A stretch of 64,000 nt of DNA from an uncultured Planctomycetia bacterium (GTDB taxonomy: Bacteria; Omnitrophota; Gorgyraeia; Tantalellales; Tantalellaceae): assembly GCA_964421015.1 (NCBI GenBank), contig CAYQUS010000002.1, forward strand, positions 8,538 to 72,537, read 5' to 3'. The notes under the pieces were generated by a model that was not told where the DNA came from, made no database searches, and saw only the letters and a program-made list of their open reading frames with translations. Position 1 is the first letter of the stretch. Every line of letters starts with the position of its first letter. Shown here piece after piece: positions 1-63,948 of this stretch. Position numbers and translations under genes: made by a program.

Positions 1-357
1 TTCCTCTTCGGTACCCTGATCGTAACTTATCGTGACGGTATCCCCTATGACTAGATCCTTGATATTGTTCTTGTGCTCTACGGTAACATCACCGTCTATC
101 GGAAGCAAAACTTCGTATTCGGCGTGCTTTTCTTCATCCCTGGCGTATACTACGGCGATATACTTATCGTCCATATGACTTATCTCTCCCGTTACTTCCC
201 CTGTCCCGGTCCATGTAACTGCTGCTTTTTCGCCGGTTTTTGCTTTGGTCTTTTCCTCTTTATCATCTTTCGCGGCAAAAGCATAAAAACTAAGGATCAG
301 GGCGGCCGCAACCATGAGTGCGCCCATCAATATCGTCTTTTTATTCAGCATCGTCAT
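1..357 (-). CDS. hypothetical secreted protein, partial (gene runs off window start)
   Basis: Minus-strand ORF not in the track because it is truncated by the window edge. ATG at ~357 is preceded by an AGGAGG SD. N-terminus MTMLNKKTILMGALMVAAALILSFYAFA is signal-peptide-like. The reading frame is open to position 1. Confidence 0.45.
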   Translation of the reverse strand, partial: MTMLNKKTILMGALMVAAALILSFYAFAAKDDKEEKTKAKTGEKAAVTWTGTGEVTGEISHMDDKYIAVVYARDEEKHAEYEVLLPIDGDVTVEHKNNIKDLVIGDTVTISYDQGTEEE

Positions 358-437: not shown

Positions 438-866
438 CTACCTGACCGACGACCCAGCAAAACTGTAATTCACCGTCTTGCCTCTGCCGTTATTGACGGA
501 GAGCATTCCGCTCATCATCCCGTCAGGGACGATGTCTCCTCTCCACGAGGCCATTGCCCCGCCTCCCGCGGCCTGAGTCGTTTCCCAGGTAAAGTTCCCA
601 TTTTCTTCCAGCCTTAAGCTGTAGCTTGTAGGCGCAAATCCCTGGTTCATCATGTTCCTGGAAGACACCTGCCCGGAATAGAAACTTACAACATCGGTCT
701 CGTTTTTGCCGCCGTCCAGGGGTCTCATCTCAACAAGCCATTCTGTCCCCTCAAGTTCGGCTCTTTTCTGAGATAGGATTTCGTCTATATCAATTGTTTC
801 CGCTTTGGCAAAGCTTGGGAGTAACAGGGAGAACACAACAAGCGCACAAAGGACAACCTTTTTCAT
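438..866 (-). CDS. secreted protein, stand-alone copy of the ~100 aa W..E/ASW.G domain family (paralog 1)
   Basis: Track ORF 438..1016. The internal Met at 866 begins a signal peptide, MKKVVLCALVVFSLLLPSFAKA. The C-terminal domain (LEGTEWLVEMRP...MASWRGDIVPDGMMSGMLSV) is homologous to the C-termini of CDS 976..2196 and CDS 3562..4263. Confidence 0.6.
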   Translation of the reverse strand: MKKVVLCALVVFSLLLPSFAKAETIDIDEILSQKRAELEGTEWLVEMRPLDGGKNETDVVSFYSGQVSSRNMMNQGFAPTSYSLRLEENGNFTWETTQAAGGGAMASWRGDIVPDGMMSGMLSVNNGRGKTVNYSFAGSSVR

Positions 867-975
867 GGAGGCACCTCTCGTGTTTTTGGAAGCAGCACTT
901 AAAGAAACGCGGAATTTGTCTTCTCCGCCTATTATATACAATTTATTTTTACAGTAATTATACATGACACTTCCC

Positions 976-2196
976 TCACTGTCTAATTTTCGGCTCAATA
1001 AGTTTTCTCCAGACATCTTTACCGGAATAACTTACGCTTACAAAGGAAAAGTCCCTGTTCTCAAGACCCTTCTGCCTGAGAGTAAGAGTTCCCCTCATTT
1101 CTCCGCTATCGGAAACTTCCCCGTACCAGGAAGCCATATCTTCTCCCCTTTTCATCTTTGCCGTGTACACCACTTCTCCTGTATCGTTAACCAGAAGCGA
1201 ATACTCTACCGGGAAAAATCCCCTAAAAACAAGATTATCCGATGAAAAAACCCCGTCGTAGAACTCTATGGTATCCATCTGCACTTTTCCCCCGGTCACC
1301 GGCACCATCCTTATCTGCCACTCGGAACCCTCAAGCCTTTTCATTATGTTCTGCAGCTGCTCGGGCAGGCTGTATTCCACAAAAGCGGGGTTTTTGGGAG
1401 CCTCTTCTCTTGTTCCGGGAGAGAAGATCCTGAAAACCGCATAAACCAGGATCAACCCGGCCACAAAAACAGCTATTTTTACCGGATTTTTCCGTTTCCC
1501 GGGCGCTTTTGGGTCTTTTTCTTCATCCCTCGGAGCCCCGGAAACCTCTTCCATTTCCTTTTTGACCATGTCTTCAAAACCTTTGGATCCGAGCATTCCC
1601 CTTTTCTGTAGCCTCTTGTGCAGGTTCAGGTTCCCGGCAGAGAGCAGTTCTCCGGCAGCCTGTGTGTAACCTTTTCCCGCCAGCAGGTTTTCCACCTCTT
1701 CTTTTTCCTTCTGCATGAGCCCATTGGAGAAATCTAGCCCCCCGGAATACATGGTACAGCTTGTGTAGGGGTATTCCGTGGGACTTGTGACAATCTTGAT
1801 TCTTTTAGGGTTCTGATGGGTATAAACTATCGCGGGGAAAAGATACCCCTCCTTTTCAACAAGGGCGGATCTGTATCTCTGCTTGAAAAGATGCCCTGTC
1901 CTTGAGTGAACACGATTGAAATATTTGGTGTACGATGAGTTTATGTCTCTCATTACTTCCGAAATGGCGGGTGTAGTTTCTTTTTCCTGTCCCGGAAGTT
2001 CAACCAAAAGGTGGAAATGATCCGGAAGCAGCGCATACGCGTACATCCGGAATTTGTACTGCTCTTTGTATTTCGCAAGAATACCCATAAAACTCCTGTG
2101 ATCCTCTTCCGTCACAAATATTCGTCCCCGCTGATTACCCTCGCAGGTTACGTAGTACAGAGCCCCTTCGATCTGTACACGCGGAAGTCTTGGCAT
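976..2196 (-). CDS. IS200/IS605-like Y1 (HuH) transposase, RAYT-like domain, fused to a TM helix and an extracytoplasmic W..E/ASW.G domain (paralog 2)
   Basis: Track ORF 976..2286. I place the start at Met31 (2196, MPRLPRVQIEG...) because an AAGGAAA SD lies 6 nt upstream and a terminator U-tract abuts the 2286 ATG. The N-terminal domain carries the HuH motif (YALLPDHFHLLV), then ...GHLFKQRYRSALVEKEGYLFPAIVYTHQNP, typical of PF01797 RAYT-like proteins. A single TM segment (KIAVFVAGLILVYAVFRIF) precedes a C-terminal domain homologous to the two neighbouring secreted proteins. Confidence 0.6.
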   Translation of the reverse strand: MPRLPRVQIEGALYYVTCEGNQRGRIFVTEEDHRSFMGILAKYKEQYKFRMYAYALLPDHFHLLVELPGQEKETTPAISEVMRDINSSYTKYFNRVHSRTGHLFKQRYRSALVEKEGYLFPAIVYTHQNPKRIKIVTSPTEYPYTSCTMYSGGLDFSNGLMQKEKEEVENLLAGKGYTQAAGELLSAGNLNLHKRLQKRGMLGSKGFEDMVKKEMEEVSGAPRDEEKDPKAPGKRKNPVKIAVFVAGLILVYAVFRIFSPGTREEAPKNPAFVEYSLPEQLQNIMKRLEGSEWQIRMVPVTGGKVQMDTIEFYDGVFSSDNLVFRGFFPVEYSLLVNDTGEVVYTAKMKRGEDMASWYGEVSDSGEMRGTLTLRQKGLENRDFSFVSVSYSGKDVWRKLIEPKIRQ

Positions 2197-2286
2197 CTTA
2201 GTTTCCTTTTCGTTAAATTTCTGCCTTTTTTTGCCATTAATGCCTGGCACTTTTCTTTGGTGCCTGGCACTTTTTGCTTTGGACAT

Positions 2287-2315
2287 AAAAAAAACCCAGG
2301 CTACTTACTCCTGGG
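2287..2315 (-). terminator. Rho-independent terminator (hairpin CCCAGG-loop-CCTGGG followed by a U8 tract on the minus strand)
   Basis: Plus strand reads aaaaaaaa cccagg ctacttactc cctggg. On the minus strand this is a GC stem followed by TTTTTTTT, immediately before the transposase-fusion gene. Confidence 0.5.
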
Positions 2316-2635
2316 CTTAATAAAAATCATCGAGTCCTTCGGTAACCTGCCGATCCTTTACTCTATTTCAAGGACGCACGGTTTTGCGCACCCGCCAATG
2401 CGGGATTGCCTTTTTCGGAACTTCGCGCAGTATTTTTCTACTTTAAGTATGCCACATAGGGTGGCGCTTTTCAAGTGAACCAAAGTAAAGCTGGCTTTCC
2501 CCAAGCCTATACCCTCCTCTCTTGGCTCTAAAACCCTTAAAAACAAAGAACTTTTAAAAAAATCCATTTTTTTTGAAAAAAATTTAAGGGAATAAAAAAT
2601 TTAAGAAAATTGTGTTCTCACAGATACATAGAAAA

Positions 2636-3170
2636 GCGAAGGTTCAGGTTGAGGTCAAGGTGCCTGGCAGTGAGACTGGTGTTTCATAGATTTGGCTATA
2701 GGTAAACTTAAGTACGCGAGACAGTATTTTTAAAATCCTGTCTCGCGGCCAAATCGATGAAACACCATAGTCGAACTGTCCCCGAGATAGTGAAGCTGCG
2801 GTTTCATGAGCAAAGAGAAATGAAACCGCACAGCTGAACTGCAGCGAAGGGGCACCAACGTGTCTTGGAGTAAAGGAGAAAGTAGTAAGGAGAAAAATAT
2901 CAGATCAAGGTTGAGGTTCAGGTTTAGGTTGAATTTGCCGGCAGATGCCGATGTTCCCGGAAGGGCGTTGGTCGACCGAGCGGGCACGGATCCCGAGGGC
3001 AGTGAGGCTGGTGTTTCATGATGGAATGAAACACCATGGCCGAACTGTCCCGAGGGAGAGCGAGGGAGAGCATCGAGCGAGATTTCCACGCCGGGGAAAT
3101 CGAGCGTCCCTGAAGGGAATATTGGCATCTGCCGGCAGATGCCGATGTTCCCGGAAGGGCGTTGACAGGC
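2636..3170. repeat. mosaic of nested palindromes and direct repeats (BIME-like cluster)
   Basis: Contains the perfect 10-bp stem ggtgtttcat/atgaaacacc (~3010-3040), a second copy split by a 75 nt insert (~2672-2770), and the hairpin tgcggtttcat/atgaaaccgca (~2795-2835). A 33 nt direct repeat, ccggcagatgccgatgttcccggaagggcgttg, occurs at 2938-2970 and again at 3132-3164. Long-arm REP motifs aggttcaggttgaggtcaaggtg occur at 2640 and 2906. Confidence 0.6.
3076..3135. repeat. repeat family B (gatttccacgccggggaaatcgagcgtccctgaagggaat)
   Basis: A near-identical copy occurs in inverse orientation at 12030..12100. Both contain the palindrome tccctgaaggga. The track ORFs over these copies are repeat-derived. 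Confidence 0.55.
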
Positions 3171-3177
3171 CGAGGGT

Positions 3178-3335
3178 ACGCGCAAGACCGCGGAGAGAGT
3201 GTGTTCGAGACTGGAATAATTCGCCGCCCGAAAGGGATAAAAATAAGGACACCCCCCTGAAGAGTCTGCTCCTGAAATATTAAATTAACAGGCGGATTAT
3301 GAAGAGCGCAGAATACACTCTCTTCGCGGAGAGCG
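3178..3335 (+). repeat. conserved ~150 nt element, copy 1, closed by a ~16-18 bp terminal stem; candidate structured RNA or MITE
   Basis: About 93% identical to copy 2 at 4546..4695. The 5' end cgcggagagagtgtg pairs with the 3' end cacactctcttcgcg. Confidence 0.5.
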
Positions 3336-3432
3336 GGTATCAAGATGCAAAATAAAAGCGGGAACACGCATCAAATTTACGCGTCCCCGCTTTTCTCTCA
3401 ACCTCAACCTTCTATTTTCCTCTTGCTCCTTA

Positions 3433-3485
3433 AAACCACATTGGTGACAGGCACTTCAACTCGGGGAAATACACTCCGTGCCAGT
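3433..3485. repeat. REP-like palindromic unit (ggtgacaggcac-loop-gtgccagtcacctcaacc)
   Basis: The same unit recurs at 6398..6450, 6456..6520 and, inverted, at 13281..13338. Confidence 0.6.
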
Positions 3486-3561
3486 CACCTCAACCTTTTT
3501 CTTACTCCTTACTCCTTACTACTTGCTACTTTCTACTTCCCTTCCCCTTCCCTCTTATTCC

Positions 3562-4263
3562 TTACATCCAGCTTCTCTTTGCCTTCTTTTCCGGTTTTTC
3601 AGCCTTGACCGGAACAACTTCAACAGCCTCTTCCTCAATAAGCTCCTCTCCGGAGGGGGTCTCGACAACTTCCTCTACGACCTCTTCCACTACAAGAGCT
3701 TCTCCGGCAGGGGTCTCAACAACCGCGGCCTCTTCTACTACAACTTCTTCCACTACCGCGCCTTTGCCTCTGCTCGCGAAGGTGTAGTTTTTAACTGTGC
3801 CCGCTTTGTCGTTCTTGTGTATGCTTAATACCCCGGTCATCGTTTCACTAAGGACGCCCGTTTCGGGATCTCTTCTCATGTCGCCTCTCCAGAAAGCCTG
3901 CTGGCCGTCTTCTGTGACCTGCATGGTCTCCCATGTAGCGCTGTTCTCTCTCCTTATCCTCAAGGTCAGGTTCGACGCCCCAAAACCCTGCTCCATCAGC
4001 ATCGCCGATTCCACCCTGCCCATATTCGTGAACTTTATAGTGTCGTCCACAACCTCTTTTTTGGCGTTATCCGTGCTTTCTGTTAGGGTTATTTCCCAGA
4101 GCGTGTCATTTATCTGCTTTTTGGCCGCTTCCACCATGAGAGCCCTCTTAACCGCCTCCTCCTCCGTTTCCTGAGCCATTAAGATGCTGGCCGAAAAACA
4201 AAACAAGGCCGAAGCCATTACAACTTTCACTACCTTCATCGCTTCTCTAGAGAACATGTCCAT
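3562..4263 (-). CDS. secreted protein, stand-alone copy of the W..E/ASW.G domain family (paralog 3) with an acidic tandem-repeat C-terminal tail
   Basis: Signal peptide MKVVKVVMASALFCFSASILMA (the start may be Met9 at ~4239). The domain NDTLWEITLTES...AFWRGDMRRDPETGVLSETMTGVLSI is homologous to the other two family members. The C-terminus is a low-complexity VVEEVVEEVVETP(A/S)GE repeat, encoded by a ~60 nt tandem repeat at ~3600-3760. Confidence 0.6.
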   Translation of the reverse strand: MDMFSREAMKVVKVVMASALFCFSASILMAQETEEEAVKRALMVEAAKKQINDTLWEITLTESTDNAKKEVVDDTIKFTNMGRVESAMLMEQGFGASNLTLRIRRENSATWETMQVTEDGQQAFWRGDMRRDPETGVLSETMTGVLSIHKNDKAGTVKNYTFASRGKGAVVEEVVVEEAAVVETPAGEALVVEEVVEEVVETPSGEELIEEEAVEVVPVKAEKPEKKAKRSWM

Positions 4264-4545
4264 ACCCCCTTTTTTATGATAAATCCCTTTTAAAAACCTT
4301 CCCTATTTACCTAAGTTCCTTTATTTTAGGTATTAATTATCCCATATTTTAAACTGTTTTGCAACAATGCCAGGTTATTGCGCTAATACGCTCCACCTTC
4401 CCGCACGATACCCTATCCGCGCCTCACTCAACCTTAACCCTTACTCCTTCCCTCTTTCTTCCTGCTCCACCCATATTCGACATATCCCGCTCGGAAAAAG
4501 TTCCATAAAAACACATTGGTGCCCCCTCAGCACATCGGTCTTGGA

Positions 4546-4695
4546 AAACCGCGGGGAGAGTGTGTCGAGACTGGAATAATTCGCCGCCCGAAAGGGATAA
4601 AATTAAGGACACTCCCCTGAAGAGTCTGCTCCTGAAGTATTACATTAACAGGCGGATTGTGAAGAGCGCAGAATACACTCTCTCCGCGGAAAGCG
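4546..4695 (+). repeat. conserved ~150 nt element, copy 2
   Basis: See copy 1. The terminal stem is cgcggggagagtgtg/cacactctctccgcg. Relative to copy 1 there is an a-to-g change on the 5' arm and a t-to-c change on the 3' arm. This is a compensatory A-U to G-C pair change. Confidence 0.5.
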
Positions 4696-4782
4696 ACCGT
4701 TCTAGATTCTTCGCCTTCGGCTCAGAATGACAATATTTATTCCTTCCGAACTTCCTACTTTACGCCTCTCTACGCTCTCAAT

Positions 4783-6375
4783 CTATTCCGCGACTACCGC
4801 CGCTTCAACTATCAGCACATCTTCCTTGGGCTTGTCGGAACTATCTGTCTCTACGATACTTATAGCATTAACAACGTCCATACCCCATATAACTTTTCCG
4901 AAAACGGTGTGCCTTCCGTAAAGATGTTTGGCCGGAGCTACGGTTATGAAAAACTGGCTTTTATTGGAATCCGGTCCGGAATTCGCCATGGCGAGTACCC
5001 CGGGTTCGTCGAAATTCAGACCTTCCTTTATTTCATCCACAAAAGGGCTCTCCCCCCAGAAAGATTCTCCCCCCGCTCCGGTGCCGCTGGGATCTCCCGC
5101 CTGAACCATAAAATCCTTTATTACTCTATGGAACTTTATGCCGTTATAGTATCCCTTCTCCACAAGACCGATAAAATTCTCGGCGGCCAGAGGCGCCGAT
5201 TCCGGGAAAAGCCTCAGAGCTACGTCCCCTTTAGAGGTTTTAAGGACTATAAGCGACTTTTTCTTCATACTTTCCACCTTTTCCTGCTGTCTCTTTTCCT
5301 CGACATAATCACGGAAACTGGCTCTAGAGAGAAGGTCATCGAAATATTCCTTAACGATTTTCTGTTTTTTGCCTCTTGTGAGCATTTCGCGGTAATATTC
5401 TTTTTTCTGGTCGTCATACTGCGCCATGTCGGCCCGGCGCGTATTAAGAAGCCTGACAACAACGGGGCCGTAATAGTTGTGGGCCGCCATAAAGGTTCCT
5501 GGTTCGCTCTCGACTATAGTGTACGCCTCGTCTTTTGGTATTTTCCACAGGTCGATAAGGGCCTCGAGCGTCATGCTGTTTATCCACGAAGCCCCTTTCT
5601 GCCCCAGGTCTTTCTTCGCCTCATAAGTGTCCCACCAGAGGCGCGGGTTATCACGCACTTTATCCTGAAACTCCCTCGCGGCCTCGTCAGTCGCAAAAAG
5701 TATGTACTCGCTCTCGAAAGAATTGTACTGGTTGAGGAATTTCTGCAGCATCTCGTCTTCCGTGACTACGACCTCGGGATTGGCCTTTATGCTGAGGAAC
5801 TTATTGACCGTAAGAAGGTCCTTTATCCGCCCCTCAAAAACTTCCGCGCTTTCGTTGAAAGTTTTCGGCACCCATTCCTTGTACTCGGCTGAACCGTACT
5901 CCAACCCCTGTTCTTTAACAAGCCTCTTAAGCTCCGTCTCCAGTTCTTCGCGGGTTATCTCTATTCCTATAGCCTTGGCCTCTATCCCGTATATAAGGTT
6001 CTGCCATGCCTCTATTCTTCTGGCATCCTCTCTGAGCTGCTCATTAAGCCCCTCCACTTCTTTTGCCATTCTTGTGAACATCGAAGCAGTTTTATACTGG
6101 TAAAGAAATTCCTGCGGTGTGACCGGGCGGTGAAAAACCTCTCCCACGGCCCCGGGCATCATGGGGCCCGGCGTTACCTTGGCCTCATCTTTAGGTTCGT
6201 CTGATCCCTCCTCGGCGGAACTTGTTTTTTCCTGGGCCTTTGATGCCTCTGCCGATTTTTGTTCGGCGGTAACTTCCTTAGTTTCCTGGGATACCTTAGA
6301 AGCCTCACGGGCGCATCCGTACGGCGCGCATGTTATCATCATTACGGCCAAGAGATATCCTAAAAATTTTTTCAT
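4783..6375 (-). CDS. periplasmic peptidyl-prolyl cis-trans isomerase, cyclophilin type, with an N-terminal SurA/PpiD-like chaperone region
   Basis: The C-terminal ~170 aa is a cyclophilin domain (FHRVIKDFMVQAGDP...GESFWG...QFFIT...HTVFGKV). The N-terminus has a signal or lipoprotein peptide. Confidence 0.8.
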   Translation of the reverse strand: MKKFLGYLLAVMMITCAPYGCAREASKVSQETKEVTAEQKSAEASKAQEKTSSAEEGSDEPKDEAKVTPGPMMPGAVGEVFHRPVTPQEFLYQYKTASMFTRMAKEVEGLNEQLREDARRIEAWQNLIYGIEAKAIGIEITREELETELKRLVKEQGLEYGSAEYKEWVPKTFNESAEVFEGRIKDLLTVNKFLSIKANPEVVVTEDEMLQKFLNQYNSFESEYILFATDEAAREFQDKVRDNPRLWWDTYEAKKDLGQKGASWINSMTLEALIDLWKIPKDEAYTIVESEPGTFMAAHNYYGPVVVRLLNTRRADMAQYDDQKKEYYREMLTRGKKQKIVKEYFDDLLSRASFRDYVEEKRQQEKVESMKKKSLIVLKTSKGDVALRLFPESAPLAAENFIGLVEKGYYNGIKFHRVIKDFMVQAGDPSGTGAGGESFWGESPFVDEIKEGLNFDEPGVLAMANSGPDSNKSQFFITVAPAKHLYGRHTVFGKVIWGMDVVNAISIVETDSSDKPKEDVLIVEAAVVAE

Positions 6376-6397
6376 TTCACCCTCCTAAAGACACATT

Positions 6398-6520
6398 GGT
6401 GACAGGCACTTCAATTCGGGAAATACGATCTGTGCCAGTCACCTAAACCTGCATCGATGACAGGCACTTCAACTCGGGAAATACGATCTGTGCCAGTCAC
6501 CTCGACCTTAACCTGAACCT
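6398..6520. repeat. two tandem REP-like palindromic units
   Basis: gacaggcacttcaaytcgggaaatacgatctgtgccagtcacct occurs twice. The second copy continues into the long arm cacctcgaccttaacctgaacct. Confidence 0.6.
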
Positions 6521-6534
6521 GCGGTCTTGCTACC

Positions 6535-7107: not shown

Positions 7108-8280
7108 TCAGCGCATGGGAGAAGTACCCTCAAAGGCTTCCCATGTGAGGACGTACCTTTTAACCCAGTCGATATCGGGGTCGTCGCCTTTTGAGAGCCT
7201 TAGAAAATCCCTGAAATGCTCCAGGGCTTTCTTACGGTCAACAACGTGTTCCGCGTATATGTAACCAAGGTTAAAATGCGCGTATGGCTCGTCTGGAGCC
7301 ACTTCCAGGGCCTTTTCGAACTCCACGGCCGCCCTCTTATACTCTTTGTTCTTGGTGTAGAACACTCCCAGGTTATAATGCGTTTTTGCCGTCTGCTTTA
7401 TGAGTTTCGCGTTCTCTTTGGCCAGTTCCGAGAACTTCTTGGGCAGGTCCCTCATTTCCCTCTCCATTTCCCGGTTGGTCTTGACGGCATGTTCGTATTT
7501 TTTCTTGTACCCGGTTATCTCGTGGGAAAGTTTATTTTTATCGGTTTCTATCTTCTCTTTTTCTTTAGCTGTCTTTTCTAAAAGCCCCTGCAGTTTTTTC
7601 ACTTCACCCTCGAGAGCTCTTTTCTCCTGTTTAAGCTGGGATGTCTCGTTCTTGAGGTCCTTTAAAGCTCCTTCGGAAGTGGCTCTTTCATAAGAATCCA
7701 GCGCCTCATCCCTTTCCCTGGCGATATTAGAAGCCTGTGATTCCAGGTCCCTTATAACTCCCGCCAGAGACTCGTTTTTATCCGTAAGCTCCGCTTTCTC
7801 AGCCTCAAGAGCCTCTATCCTCTGTTGGGCCTCTTCCATAACCTCCAGAACCTCGGTGGCTTTATTTCTCTCGTTCAAAAGTATCTTCACCTGGGCGAGA
7901 ATATTATCCCTGTCTCTGCGCAGCGCCGAGTTCTCGATGCGAAGGTCGTCTATGCCCATAGCCATACCTTCGGGCCCCACCTCGCTTAACTGATCTATCC
8001 TTGCAAGGAGACTTTCTTTTTCTTTCTGCAAAAGGTCGTTCTGTTTTTTAAGAGCCTGGTTTTCCTGGCTGAAGTCCTTCTGCGGTTCGGACTTCTCAGG
8101 ACGGGCTTTTACCTGCTCGAGAAGGCTTTCCCTTTCCTCCACTATCTTCTCGTTCCTCCGCAGAAGGTCCTCGTTCTCCCGTTTAAGCTTGGAGACATCG
8201 TAAAAAACATAAGTCCCTCCTGCCGCCAGGGCGAAAAGCGACGCCGACAAGAAACTTATGATTATGCTTGTAGTTTTCAT
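7108..8280 (-). CDS. membrane-anchored coiled-coil protein with C-terminal TPR repeats
   Basis: N-terminal TM anchor. A long heptad-rich E/K/L region follows. The C-terminus holds TPR-like repeats (YNLGVFYTKNKEYKRAAVEFEKALEVAPDEPYAHFNLGYIY). Confidence 0.6.
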   Translation of the reverse strand: MKTTSIIISFLSASLFALAAGGTYVFYDVSKLKRENEDLLRRNEKIVEERESLLEQVKARPEKSEPQKDFSQENQALKKQNDLLQKEKESLLARIDQLSEVGPEGMAMGIDDLRIENSALRRDRDNILAQVKILLNERNKATEVLEVMEEAQQRIEALEAEKAELTDKNESLAGVIRDLESQASNIARERDEALDSYERATSEGALKDLKNETSQLKQEKRALEGEVKKLQGLLEKTAKEKEKIETDKNKLSHEITGYKKKYEHAVKTNREMEREMRDLPKKFSELAKENAKLIKQTAKTHYNLGVFYTKNKEYKRAAVEFEKALEVAPDEPYAHFNLGYIYAEHVVDRKKALEHFRDFLRLSKGDDPDIDWVKRYVLTWEAFEGTSPMR

Positions 8281-12730: not shown

Positions 12731-12829
12731 CAAGCCGGCATTAAACCCCTGATTGACTTAGCCATTCACGGTTGTTATAATGTGTGGGGTTTTATCCGGG
12801 ATTTTACAGAAAAACCGGCAATCAGGACC

Positions 12830-12906
12830 GGGAAGTAGCGCAGCCTGGCTAGCGCACCTGCTTTGGGAGCAGGGAGTCGTGGGTTCGAATCCCACCTTCC
12901 CGACCA
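12830..12906 (+). tRNA. tRNA-Pro (anticodon TGG)
   Basis: Cloverleaf folded by hand. Anticodon loop cttTGGga. CCA encoded. Confidence 0.8.
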
Positions 12907-12969
12907 GTTTTTATTTATCCGCCAAGTTACTCGAGTTTTTTGCTTGTTTTTTTGTTTGCTTGCGTTTCA

Positions 12970-13053
12970 GCGGGCGTGGCGGAATTGGCAGACGCGCTAG
13001 CCTTAGGAGCTAGTGGTTTTACCGTGGGGGTTCGAGTCCCTTCGCCCGCACCA
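12970..13053 (+). tRNA. tRNA-Leu (anticodon TAG), long variable arm
   Basis: Acceptor stem gcgggcg/cgcccgc. Anticodon loop ctTAGga. CCA encoded. Confidence 0.8.
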
Positions 13054-13155
13054 TTTTTTGCCCGGGCTCTTTTCCGGGTTGAAATGCGCTGTGTTTTATG
13101 TTTTACTGTTTTTGTTTTTAGGGTTTTTGGGTAAGATCGTGTTCTTTAAAAAGTT

Positions 13156-13232
13156 GCGCCCGTAGCTCACTTGGATAGAGCATCTGCCTTCTAAGCAGAG
13201 GGTAGCAGGTTCGAATCCTGCCGGGCGCGCCA
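13156..13232 (+). tRNA. tRNA-Arg (anticodon TCT)
   Basis: Acceptor stem gcgcccg/cgggcgc. Anticodon loop ctTCTaa. CCA encoded. Confidence 0.8.
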
Positions 13233-13280
13233 TGATCTGAATTTCGCTATCGCGAAATTCACCCGAAGGACCGATTGTTC

Positions 13281-13338
13281 GAGGTCGAGGTGACTGGCAA
13301 CACCATCGCTTTTTAATTGTAAGGTGGTGCCTGTCACC
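13281..13338. repeat. REP-like palindromic unit, inverted copy, between tRNA-Arg and tRNA-His
   Basis: gaggtcgaggtgactggca-loop-ggtggtgcctgtcacc. Confidence 0.55.
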
Positions 13339-13369
13339 AAAGTGTCTGTATCTGTAGATGTACATCGGT

Positions 13370-13446
13370 GGTGGGCGTAGCTCAGCTGGTAGAGCGCCTG
13401 ACTGTGGCTCAGGTTGCCGCGGGTTCAAATCCCGTCGCTCACCCCA
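13370..13446 (+). tRNA. tRNA-His (anticodon GTG) with an encoded G-1
   Basis: Anticodon loop ctGTGgc. An extra 5' G pairs with the discriminator C. CCA encoded. Confidence 0.75.
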
Positions 13447-41821: not shown

Positions 41822-41843
41822 AAAGAAAGGGATAAAAAAGAAT

Positions 41844-41919
41844 GGAGCCCGCAAGTGGACTCGAACCACCGACCTAAGCATTACGAATGCTTTGCTCTAC
41901 CAGCTGAGCTACGCGGGCC
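41844..41919 (-). tRNA. tRNA-Thr (anticodon CGT)
   Basis: Hand-folded cloverleaf. Anticodon loop ttCGTaa. CCA encoded. Confidence 0.75.
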
Positions 41920-41945
41920 CCGGCATCAAAAGACCGTCCGAGATC

Positions 41946-42278
41946 TTACTTGGTCTGATCCTTGAATCCTGAAGTAGATTCCAGTATAGGCCTGTATCCG
42001 TTGGGCCAGGGTATCAGAAAGGTGCCTACCTCGACTATACCCGTGGCTCCTTTTACAATGAACCTTGAGACTCCCTCAAGGAACCCGTGGGAAGTCCCGG
42101 CAAGAAGACCTGTCCCTGTTCTGTTTTCCTTAACCGAATAAAGCATCTCCCCGGGAGACGAAAGAATGTTCCACAAGCCGGTGTTAAGTTTTTCTATAGG
42201 ACCCGGCTCGGATCCCGCGAACGCGCATGCCCCGGACATAACGGAAAAAACCACGGCTAGAACTACGAGCTTTTTCAT
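41946..42278 (-). CDS. small secreted protein, hypothetical
   Basis: Signal peptide MKKLVVLAVVFSVMSGACAFA. Confidence 0.5.
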   Translation of the reverse strand: MKKLVVLAVVFSVMSGACAFAGSEPGPIEKLNTGLWNILSSPGEMLYSVKENRTGTGLLAGTSHGFLEGVSRFIVKGATGIVEVGTFLIPWPNGYRPILESTSGFKDQTK

Positions 42279-42380
42279 TTTCCCTCCCTTGTTCCGTGCC
42301 CACTAAAACTAAAGAAGAATAACGACATAGATTTTATACGTTCGCGCTTTTTTTAGCAAGATTTTCCTGTTGCCAGGACC

Positions 42381-42659
42381 TCATACGGAAGCCCCCACGG
42401 CCCTGGACTCGGTAGACTCGAACTCTGCCGTATCTCCGGGTCCGGCGGAAGGAAGAAGAAACTTCACAAGCTCCCCCAAAACATCTTTTTCCGTGACAAA
42501 GTCGCCGAAAGAACTCATATTGCTGCCGCTCTGCTCGAAACAGTCTATCTTAGGACCTGTCGGCGTGATCGGTCTTTCGGGAAAGGCCGGAATGATCGTG
42601 CCCGCTTGCTCGGGGAAATGGACCAGGACGAAAAGCGCCAGAAAAAGGGATCTTTTCAT
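42381..42659 (-). CDS. small secreted protein, hypothetical
   Basis: Signal peptide MKRSLFLALFVLVHFPEQAG. Confidence 0.4.
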   Translation of the reverse strand: MKRSLFLALFVLVHFPEQAGTIIPAFPERPITPTGPKIDCFEQSGSNMSSFGDFVTEKDVLGELVKFLLPSAGPGDTAEFESTESRAVGASV

Positions 42660-42786
42660 GTTTTCCTCCTTGCGGCAAAATCCGAACTTTATCCGGATCC
42701 GCTGCTTTCCTCATTATACATAGCCGGGCCGGAATATGGAAGAGCTTTCAGGTGGGAAGAAAGCGATTTATTGAAGTGGTGCCGCG

Positions 42787-42862
<76 letters not shown>

Positions 42863-55211: not shown

Positions 55212-55241
55212 AAAAACAGGGGCCGGAACGAGTCCGGCCCC
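55212..55241 (-). terminator. Rho-independent terminator downstream of pheT
   Basis: On the minus strand: ggggccgga-ctcgt-tccggcccc followed by tgttttt. Confidence 0.55.
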
Positions 55242-55450
55242 CGGACCATCGTGCCGTCCGCAAGAAAGAGAATTTTAGACCTGGTAATCCAGGTGGGTGC
55301 CCTCCCGCATGCCTCGAAAGGCGAGCGAAGTTAGGCTCCCGGGTCGTAAGTGTTGGTCAAATTCTCTGTTCCAGGTCACGCGCACAACAGAGCATTAATG
55401 ACTGTGTTATCTATCTTCCGGACAAAATACCGTCCCGGATAGACCGTTCT

Positions 55451-63694: not shown

Positions 63695-63771
63695 TGGTGG
63701 GCGGTACTGGGATCGAACCGGTGACCTCCACGATGTCAACGTGGCGCTCTAACCATCTGAGCTAACCGCCC
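63695..63771 (-). tRNA. tRNA-Val (anticodon GAC)
   Basis: Acceptor stem gggcggt/accgccc. Anticodon loop ttGACat. CCA encoded. Confidence 0.7.
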
Positions 63772-63861
63772 ACTATATCTATTTTTACCTCATTGTTACA
63801 TTATATACAAAACATTTCATTCAGTATACCGCAATCTGCCCTGCGCCGCTCTGCGCCTGAA

Positions 63862-63948
63862 TGGTGGGCGAGGAGGGACTTGAACCCTCACAAGCTTGCG
63901 CCCGAGGGATTTTAAGTCCCTTGCGTCTGCCGATTCCGCCACTCGCCC
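63862..63948 (-). tRNA. tRNA-Leu (anticodon TAA), long variable arm
   Basis: Acceptor stem gggcgag/ctcgccc. Anticodon loop ctTAAaa. CCA encoded. Confidence 0.7.

Follow-up and report, generated by a model that had tools for sequence, protein, structure and literature searches.

Positions 976..2196, on the minus strand, of the 64,000-nucleotide (nt) stretch of contig CAYQUS010000002.1 analysed here (hereafter the window, in which all coordinates are given) encode a protein of 406 residues, protein B, in which a domain related to the REP-associated tyrosine transposases (RAYTs; REP, repetitive extragenic palindromic sequence) is continued by a helical extension, a single transmembrane (TM) helix and a beta-barrel. 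It represents a new architecture for a domesticated HuH/Y1 protein (HuH, histidine-hydrophobic residue-histidine), set in a conserved riboswitch cassette before very large genes, and its family is found almost only in genomes labelled Candidatus Omnitrophota. We read it as a domesticated, membrane-tethered, nucleic-acid-binding regulator or adaptor of a giant-gene operon and not as a transposase, a reading that we favour while regarding it as evenly poised between right and wrong. A preliminary description of this DNA had recognised the fusion; the riboswitch with its terminator, a twin motif in the leader, and the fact that the gene opens a giant-gene operon beside a locus resembling a type II secretion system (T2SS) are additions to it. 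No published description of a membrane RAYT-like protein in a riboswitch cassette was found in the searchable literature.

The three open reading frames (ORFs) first proposed, A (438..866), B (976..2196) and C (3562..4263), are all real and all lie on the minus strand. The first in-frame ATG of gene B is at 2286, directly after the U-tract of the terminator described below, and would open an ORF of 436 residues. Because that codon abuts the U-tract and every homologue in the alignment begins MPRLPR, which corresponds to window position 2196, we place the start of the gene at 2196; the 30 residues gained from the ATG at 2286 are translated leader motif, and that start was rejected. In this numbering Pfam assigns residues 21-116 to Y1_Tnp (51-146 of the 436-residue ORF; E=1.6e-9), and the NCBIfam model REP_Tyr_transpos gives 80.0 bits, which just equals its cut-off of 80. 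Both the HuH motif (PDHFHLL) and the tyrosine motif (VYTHQNP) are intact. An AlphaFold2 model built on 33 homologues (mean predicted local distance difference test score 83.9) has an alpha/beta domain at residues 12-135, a helical extension at 147-219, a TM helix at 238-257 and, at 279-391, a helix followed by eight strands. With this model as query, Foldseek ranks 4er8_A highest in the PDB (E=1.7e-7, target TM-score 0.70), a structure of TnpA_REP, the REP-associated tyrosine transposase of E. coli, in complex with a REP hairpin; TnpA of IS200, IS608 and ISDra2 come next. Compared with all PDB sequences, the family profile has 4er8_A as its sole match, with the HuH and Y...NP motifs aligned; the single sequence of protein B matched nothing in the PDB. 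The RAYT-like HuH/Y1 identity originally given to the N-terminus is therefore upheld by Pfam, by NCBIfam and by the closest structure in both fold and profile. Pfam found no family other than Y1_Tnp in the cytoplasmic part, and no OmpR-type winged helix was found. PADLOC gave no match to an anti-phage defence system, and an anti-phage reading was rejected on that ground.

Taken from the N-terminus, the HuH/Y1 domain (residues 1-145, 1762..2196, with the HuH motif DHFHLL and Tyr125 in YTHQNP) passes into a helical extension (residues 146-220, 1537..1761) that carries the conserved box LHK.LQ+GG.LGS..F in the alignment and is helical in the model. The only hydrophobic segment, with a hydropathy of 2.35, covers residues 239-259 (1420..1482) and coincides with the modelled TM helix; beyond it lie the extracytoplasmic helix and eight-stranded barrel (residues 279-391, 1024..1362). 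The sequence KAPGKRKNP stands on the N-terminal side of the TM segment, and because this KRK flank precedes the segment, the protein is predicted to be oriented N-in/C-out, with its HuH domain in the cytoplasm and its barrel in the periplasm; the prediction draws on hydropathy, on charge and on the signal peptides that the paralogs carry.

These paralogs are proteins A and C, of 142 and 233 residues, which share the C-terminal ~120 residues of protein B and have hydrophobic, signal-peptide-like N-termini; that the same domain recurs in two secreted proteins was already part of the preliminary description, and both pairwise and profile comparisons agree with it. The barrels of A and B are 34% identical (E=6e-21) and those of A and C 30% (E=1e-17). 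The direct comparison of B with C is not significant, and one barrel hidden Markov model (HMM) matches all three proteins (3e-39, 1e-28 and 5e-20); an HMM scan of the window found no fourth copy. The fold consists of eight antiparallel strands in a closed up-and-down barrel, for which neither Pfam nor NCBIfam has a family. Word-indexed homology searches with the barrel returned just 2 and 8 proteins, and an exhaustive profile search was required to reveal a family of 1,209 representatives at 50% identity (E<=1e-3), in which nearly all of the best 150 matches are free proteins of 140-275 residues. A free paralog lies upstream of the Y1 gene, on the same strand, in ~25 related loci and is the counterpart of protein C, whereas a downstream copy like protein A was seen elsewhere only in L001 (L-numbers designate the related loci that we compared). 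Protein C carries, after its signal peptide and barrel, an acidic and repetitive tail (3562-3760, minus strand; VVEEVVVEE...VVEEVVEEVVE...), and similar tails occur in the free paralogs P0117 and P0118. A terminator-like hairpin (3394..3354) follows its gene. A near-consensus sigma-70-like promoter (TAGACA-17-TATAAT, 11/12) at 957-985 (minus strand) overlaps the end of the fusion gene ahead of gene A, and because of this element paralog A may escape control by the riboswitch.

The distribution of the fusion leaves little doubt about its reality. In a search of 5.8 billion proteins, ~55 protein clusters match protein B over its full length at 28-70% identity, and those with a named source are nearly all from Candidatus Omnitrophota, labelled 'transposase' or 'RayT'. 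Among contigs sampled at one genome per species, 80 loci have a family member, ~55 of them over the full length; by the submitters' titles these records are mostly Omnitrophota, with a few metagenome-assembled genomes (MAGs) of Planctomycetia, Deltaproteobacteria, Eisenbacteria and Ratteibacteria. There is one copy per genome, save for two MAGs that have two (L011/L013 and L048/L049). The same continuous ORF, with the TM segment at the same position, recurs in ~60 independently assembled genomes and in dozens of metagenome contigs. The fusion of RAYT domain, TM segment and exported domain without a frameshift, as first reported, is thus carried by ~60 Omnitrophota species genomes; its architecture is genuine and conserved across a phylum-wide sample. 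An artefact of assembly or annotation, through a chimeric junction or a frameshift, had been a concern at the outset and can practically be dismissed: independent assemblies contain the same ORF at 28-70% identity, and no point in favour of an artefact was found, the sole annotation issue being the ATG at 2286. The same phylum-wide conservation does away with the earlier suggestion that a RAYT had captured a local gene family in a recent, local event.

In every complete ortholog of the Omnitrophota-type clade the TM segment lies at residues 225-285, and this includes one sub-clade in which a ~70-residue tail replaces the barrel and the TM segment is retained. Relatives without a TM segment, 190-250 residues long, come from Clostridia, Gammaproteobacteria and one Daviesbacteria genome, and in these proteins from other phyla the N-terminal HMM extends well beyond the Y1 core. 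Outside Omnitrophota, the Y1 module recurs as a fusion partner. It is joined to a chorismate-binding (PabB-like) domain, in one case in a record from an uncultured Sulfurovum, and in other proteins to helix-turn-helix (HTH) or sigma-70 region 4 domains (P0066-P0074, P0100 and P0110; P0063, P0078 and P0080); the few source names attached to the HTH and PabB-like fusions point to Campylobacterota (Sulfurovum, Sulfurimonas).

An argument against a transposase lies in the catalytic residues, which we surveyed in 70 orthologs of the TM-anchored clade. HxH is kept in 45 and lost in 25 (for example as PDRLSLL, PNQLDLL, PDRLELL or SDKVYLL), and 11 of these 25 are also without the catalytic tyrosine. 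The HuH-less members keep the fold and the TM helix, and most keep the riboswitch and the large downstream ORF. Because so many orthologs have lost HuH while fold, anchor and, mostly, context persist, the role common to the family cannot be DNA cleavage and rejoining, that is, transposition; and because the gene is near single-copy, syntenic and stripped of catalytic residues in about a third of its orthologs, we regard it as domesticated, as the preliminary description had thought possible. Outside the catalytic residues, the alignment shows YTKYFN, GHLF..RF and the histidine of Y.H.NP to be near-invariant.

The gene is preceded by a riboswitch. Rfam model RF01051, for the class I riboswitches of cyclic dimeric guanosine monophosphate (c-di-GMP-I, or GEMM-I), matches 2338..2420 on the minus strand with 43.5 bits against a gathering score of 35, and Rfam finds such an aptamer in 12 of 13 loci tested, 100-300 nt upstream on the same strand, with 40-62 bits. 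A custom covariance model (CM), built from the aptamers that Rfam had found in related loci, scores the window aptamer (2333..2425) at 72.8 bits and places an aptamer directly upstream of the Y1 gene, on its strand, in 59 of the 80 loci as well as in the window; it finds none before the TM-less relatives. Across 64 aptamers, pairing holds in 97.2% of cells and compensatory changes are seen at 17 of 20 pairs, a level reached in none of 500 shuffles and far from the 31-46% pairing of slid controls, in an alignment whose fitting to the CM favours this result. The positions that we take to be the equivalents of G20, A47 and C92 in the Vc2 structure are G in 57, A in 63 and C in all of the 64 aptamers, and G, A and C in the window. 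Five of the 64 have A at the G20-equivalent position, possibly through alignment quirks of weak matches; in Geobacter GEMM-Ib riboswitches a G-to-A change there shifts specificity to 3'3'-cyclic GMP-AMP. The variant c-di-GMP-I-GGC (RF03167) was considered and rejected: it scores 43.6 against a gathering score of 59 in the window, and all aligned sequences have GCAAAG where the variant has GCGAAG. RF03167 does pass its threshold in L007 and L019. By its conserved sequence, the riboswitch is a canonical c-di-GMP-I riboswitch, and it presumably binds c-di-GMP.

Downstream of the aptamer, an intrinsic terminator (GCCCAGG-loop-CCTGGG followed by T8; 2287..2318, minus strand; -13.8 kcal/mol by RNAfold) forms the expression platform, and a hairpin with a U-run follows nearly every orthologous aptamer, mostly 25-50 nt downstream. 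Constrained folding shows that aptamer and terminator coexist in minimum-energy folds. In about half of the leaders (e.g., L019, L027 and L039) the loop and 3' arm of the terminator (GUUUGCCUG) are complementary to the aptamer core GGCAAAC(UC), some with covarying extensions; in the window, CAGGUUAC of the aptamer (2342-2349) can pair with GUAGCCUG of the terminator (2296-2303). Because the aptamer core can pair with the terminator 3' arm, there is a hint, in which we place low confidence, of an antiterminator formed without ligand, which would make c-di-GMP an OFF signal. A consensus scan also gave a weak candidate for a sigma-70-like promoter (TTGAAA-17-CATACT with TG; 2446..2474, minus strand), which precedes the aptamer by ~20 nt.

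A motif, AAAGTGCCAGGCAC, is found after the terminator and before the start codon in nearly every locus (leaders of L001-L068), singly or in two copies. The window has two: copy 1 at 2260..2273 is AAAGTGCCAGGCAC itself, with the palindromic core GTGCC-A-GGCAC, and copy 2, AAAGTGCCAGGCAT, at 2240..2253 on the same minus strand, lies 20 nt away from centre to centre. The exact 12-mer is present in 48 of the 80 loci, nearly always in the leader only, and of 113 matches with at most one mismatch in the 700 kb searched, 97 fall within 260 nt before the Y1 gene and on the gene strand. The motif corresponds to no Rfam family. Its second copy is inverted in L026, L043 and L059. In the barrel-less sub-clade the motif reads GTGCCACGCA, with the core variant GTGCCACG in L047 and L059, and in L047, L059 and L066 the pair brackets the riboswitch, 197-215 bp separating a copy that precedes it from a copy immediately ahead of the gene; the two copies in L066 are GTGCCAGGCAC and GTGCCCGGCAC. 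Two rejected or considered identities may be recorded here. A sigma-54 promoter on the reverse strand (CTGGCAC...) was rejected, as the GG-GC spacing is 8 and not 10, the -12 element is unconserved and the element points away from the gene; and a CsrA-type site is conceivable, although the motif has GGC in place of GGA.

Two properties of the motif bear on how it might be recognised. Centre-to-centre spacings are 20-21 (11 loci), 30-33 (28), 42-43 (2), 51-53 (2) and 63 (1), with one outlier at 23; they advance in steps of ~10.5 nt, which in non-independent loci amounts to about five independent classes, and suggest proteins bound along one side of the double helix. Within the core, nearly all substitutions are C>T on the strand of the gene (13 cases at position 7 and 12 cases at position 12, against 0 and 1 for the mirror change G>A), a bias that suggests pairing of single strands tolerant of G.U or G.T. 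Base pairing between the two leader copies is feasible over 5 bp on either side of an A.A mismatch, and where copy 2 is inverted (L026/L043) a reading of the sequences gives 13/14 bp; read in the same way, the GUUUGCCUG of the terminator is also complementary to CAGGCAAA of copy 2. Since the motif occurs only with the gene, and no other nucleic-acid-binding protein was seen among the conserved neighbours, the Y1 domain would be the most economical candidate for its binder. HuH domains bind both hairpin stems and duplex iterons.

It might be objected that protein B is instead an active RAYT-type nuclease or transposase, working on local palindromes or on the leader motif pair and merely localised by its anchor. 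The objection has substance: 45 of the 70 orthologs, like the window protein, retain an intact HuH and tyrosine, the closest solved relative is TnpA_REP, the leader copies can form an imperfect hairpin (13/14 bp in L026/L043 by a reading of the sequences), and tolerance of C>T alone is compatible with G.U or G.T pairs. There are also palindromes nearby. The non-coding segments 2430-3560, 4264-4782 and 6376-6534 consist of short repeats in mosaic arrangement, and several of these repeats are palindromic. One, of 152 nt and resembling a miniature inverted-repeat transposable element or REPIN (a hairpin-forming pair of REP sequences), occurs at 3184..3335 and 4545-4695 in copies that are 93% identical and fold into a long hairpin (fold z = -4.0); they sit on both sides of paralog C and match no Rfam family. 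Another, a ~65-nt hairpin repeat (family D2), occurs at 3426..3496, 6382-6450 and 6444-6509 and partially at 13282-13350, every copy lying inside the T2SS-like and giant-gene locus or near a tRNA cluster. Its stem has GGCAC:GTGCC next to the loop and then an A.A mismatch, so that the copies at 3426-3496 and 6382-6509 share the stem top and mismatch of the leader pair.

We nevertheless consider an active nuclease rather unlikely. HuH has been lost in 25 of 70 orthologs, the tyrosine also in 11, with fold, anchor and, mostly, context unchanged; there is one copy per genome bar two MAGs, in conserved synteny; the motif is restricted to the leader of its own gene and has not dispersed; GGCAC-N(8-38)-GTGCC occurs just four times in 64 kb, always at the fusion-gene locus; and spacing steps of ~10.5 nt are unexpected for a hairpin loop. 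The flanking repeats occur 2-4 times in the 64 kb of the window; Group 2 and 3 RAYTs are flanked by REP or REPIN sequences with 16-mers that abound throughout the genome (Bertels et al., 2017, PMC5581495). The earlier statement that the genes are surrounded by REP-like palindromes (or bacterial interspersed mosaic elements) of the kind that RAYTs mobilise is thus partly supported: the palindromic flanks are there, and an association with RAYT-type REP arrays is putative.

The gene lies beside the T2SS-like locus. Clustering of all ORFs of the loci revealed, in 43 loci, a gene for a ~157-residue signal-peptide protein, without a Pfam family, that begins at a median distance of 5 nt from the end of the Y1 gene; in the window it is represented by its 5' part (119 residues; 1..357, minus strand), cut at the window edge. 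A very long ORF then follows in 51 loci and nearly always continues beyond the end of the DNA retrieved; gene calls on record give products of at least 6,237 residues (where the locus ends inside the gene) and of 6,721 residues. In the barrel-less sub-clade a gene of 1,989 residues comes after three small genes. The long contigs L086 and L087 break off no more than a few hundred bases beyond the Y1 gene, at the place taken by the giant gene in other loci; such a gene may break assemblies, and many MAGs may lack it for that reason. In L081-L083 (12454-13195; Omnitrophica WOR_2 GWF2_43_52 and relatives) a nucleotidyltransferase/HEPN pair, which we read as a toxin-antitoxin-like module, has been inserted after the small genes and ahead of the large ORF. 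The conserved neighbours upstream, which share the strand of the Y1 gene, encode a glycosyltransferase of family GT4, PIG-L, WbqC, a tetratricopeptide repeat (TPR) or coiled-coil protein, a secretin, T2SS-C, an ExeA-like ATPase and a cyclophilin-type peptidyl-prolyl isomerase (PPIase). From this set the window contains the PPIase (4783..6375, minus strand; assigned by Pfam, with a SurA-like N-terminus), the TPR protein (7111..8280, upstream of the PPIase gene) and the secretin (from 8308).

Giant genes of Omnitrophota have been described as preceded by a T2SS-like locus and a PPIase gene and followed by pilZ genes; the T2SS-like locus was read as secreting the giant protein, and the pilZ genes led to a suspected link with c-di-GMP (West-Roberts et al., 2023, bioRxiv 10.1101/2023.11.21.568195). 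The words 'riboswitch' and 'transposase' do not occur in the text of that study, nor does a 2026 preprint on 176 complete Omnitrophota genomes (bioRxiv 10.64898/2026.06.07.730766) mention a riboswitch or RAYT. A literature search for Omnitrophota with c-di-GMP or GEMM yielded nothing relevant, and no report of a c-di-GMP-I riboswitch in the phylum was found in the searchable papers.

The neighbouring secretin, T2SS-C and ExeA-like ATPase, together with the intact HuH of the window genome, might seem to favour the role suggested in the preliminary description, in which a HuH enzyme handles single-stranded DNA at the envelope during uptake or export through a machine of the T2SS or type IV pilus kind. 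Type IV pilus-like machines can indeed take up DNA. We find this role very improbable, given that the HuH domain is predicted to lie on the cytoplasmic side, that no ComEC/DprA-like, relaxase-coupling or other competence or conjugation genes are among the conserved neighbours, that catalysis has been lost in a third of lineages, and that the published reading of the locus is secretion of a giant protein.

Returning to the reading that we favour, that of a regulator or adaptor of the giant-gene operon, its steps might be as follows. Binding of c-di-GMP to the aptamer, which is recognised by covariance models, would decide whether transcription passes the terminator into the operon. The Y1 domain would act as a sequence-specific nucleic-acid-binding module and not as a transposase, with the twin AAAGTGCCAGGCAC in its own leader as the likeliest target, which would give feedback control on the operon. 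The periplasmic barrel would bind a ligand or a partner, whether the free paralogs, the small secreted protein or the giant protein, and protein B would in this way couple the state of the envelope or surface to expression. A bolder version, which we put forward as tentative and rather doubtful, makes the HuH domain a membrane tether: by binding the twin motif, as DNA or as nascent transcript, it would hold the giant-gene locus or its mRNA to the inner membrane beside the T2SS-like machine, while the barrel reported the state of the surface or of the paralogs to expression and c-di-GMP gated the unit. If this were true, the giant protein would be made where it is exported, the transposase fold would have been put to a new use, and protein B would stand for a new class of transmembrane regulators of the one-component type.

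It is also conceivable, though we think it improbable, that the Y1 domain no longer binds nucleic acid at all and that protein B serves as an assembly or secretion adaptor, or a chaperone, for the giant protein and the T2SS-like machine, the motif being the site of another regulator or an RNA structure. Such a function would sit well with the dispensable catalytic residues, with the constant adjacency to the secretion locus and the giant ORF, and with the periplasmic protein-protein contacts that the barrel paralogs and the small secreted protein suggest; the complementarity of GUUUGCCUG to GGCAAAC and to CAGGCAAA hints, moreover, at rearrangements at the level of RNA. However, the near-invariant YTKYFN, GHLF..RF and Y.H.NP fit a nucleic-acid-binding surface better than a bare scaffold, and motif and gene co-occur exclusively.

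Several observations weigh against a nucleic-acid-binding regulator of a giant-gene operon. The window ends inside the small secreted gene, and the giant ORF is known from the loci of other genomes; its co-transcription with the Y1 gene would follow from spacing and gene order. Five related loci (L041, L055, L061, L064 and L077) have no riboswitch match. HuH and tyrosine are intact in the window protein and in 44 other orthologs, and catalysis may still matter in such orthologs, the window lineage included. The two clues to the nature of the motif are in conflict, the spacing pointing to sites on double-stranded DNA and the substitutions to pairing of single strands. Finally, binding of the motif by the Y1 domain is proposed from their exclusive co-occurrence, and the binder could be encoded elsewhere.

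The window otherwise holds ordinary chromosomal content, including a 6S RNA gene at 55239-55396 (minus strand, 54 bits) and three tRNA clusters at 12829-13446 (plus strand), 41843-42852 (minus strand) and 63695-63948 (minus strand).

Omnitrophota are tiny bacteria, some of them shown to be predatory, and their giant genes are among the largest in public data. The locus described here offers three handles on the control of such genes: a c-di-GMP riboswitch, a twin cis-motif and a dedicated membrane protein with a transposase fold. It would also be an unusually clear case of transposase domestication, in which the fold is kept, catalysis is dropped in many lineages, and an anchor and a sensor-like ectodomain are gained. 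Moreover, it corrects the public labels 'transposase' and 'RayT', which could make giant-gene neighbourhoods score as rich in mobile DNA; a mobile-DNA-rich signal around giant genes is reported in the 2026 preprint (bioRxiv 10.64898/2026.06.07.730766).

With respect to known systems, the neighbourhood is the same as that of the published Omnitrophota giant-gene loci, namely a T2SS-like locus, a PPIase and a giant gene, and the riboswitch and Y1 gene are additions to the published description (West-Roberts et al., 2023). Protein B shares with the RAYTs and TnpA_REP (E. coli YafM, PDB 4ER8) the HuH/Y1 fold and the HuH and Y...NP motifs, and this is its best match in structure and profile; near single-copy, syntenic, housekeeping-like behaviour such as we see here has also been described for RAYT groups (Bertels et al., 2017, PMC5581495). 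It differs from RAYTs, which are soluble proteins of ~150-200 residues, in its 406 residues (against ~160 in TnpA_REP) with helical extension, TM anchor and periplasmic barrel, in the loss of catalytic residues from a third of its orthologs (25 of the 70 would not count as RAYTs by the HuH motif, whereas the window protein would), and in its genomic setting, where a c-di-GMP riboswitch precedes the gene and a giant-gene operon starts with it. The Y1 domain likewise has the fold of the IS200/IS605 TnpA proteins (IS608, ISDra2); those elements, however, are multicopy and have left and right ends, whereas here there is a single copy, a motif only 5' of the gene, no tnpB and conserved synteny. Just ahead of the Y1 gene, AAAG precedes an element able to form a hairpin, an arrangement reminiscent of the left-end hairpin with guide tetranucleotide of IS200/IS605, for which IS608 uses AAAG; we offer this likeness as a lead only.

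The barrel is 5-15% identical to other minimal eight-stranded barrels, among them Cap15 (7N34), the avidins, the C-domains of fHbp and NHBA and lipocalin-like proteins. The cyclic-dinucleotide binding of Cap15 is unlikely to apply to a barrel that is exported, and a Cap15-like cytoplasmic receptor was rejected on account of the topology and the signal peptides of the paralogs. As in the c-di-GMP-I surface and adhesion operons of Vibrio and Clostridioides, a canonical GEMM-I riboswitch and a terminator stand before secreted or surface genes, although here the first gene is annotated as a 'transposase' and the downstream cargo is a very large gene. The closest parallels in organisation come from transmembrane regulators. 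ToxR/ToxS, TcpP/TcpH and CadC combine a cytoplasmic nucleic-acid-binding fold, one TM segment, a periplasmic domain and co-encoded periplasmic partners, as predicted here, and in the RsgI-type sensors of Clostridium thermocellum the ectodomain is paralogous to modules of secreted proteins, as is the barrel of protein B. The cytoplasmic module of protein B, in contrast, is HuH/Y1 and neither a winged helix nor an anti-sigma domain, so that by analogy protein B may work like the ToxR family while being no member of it.

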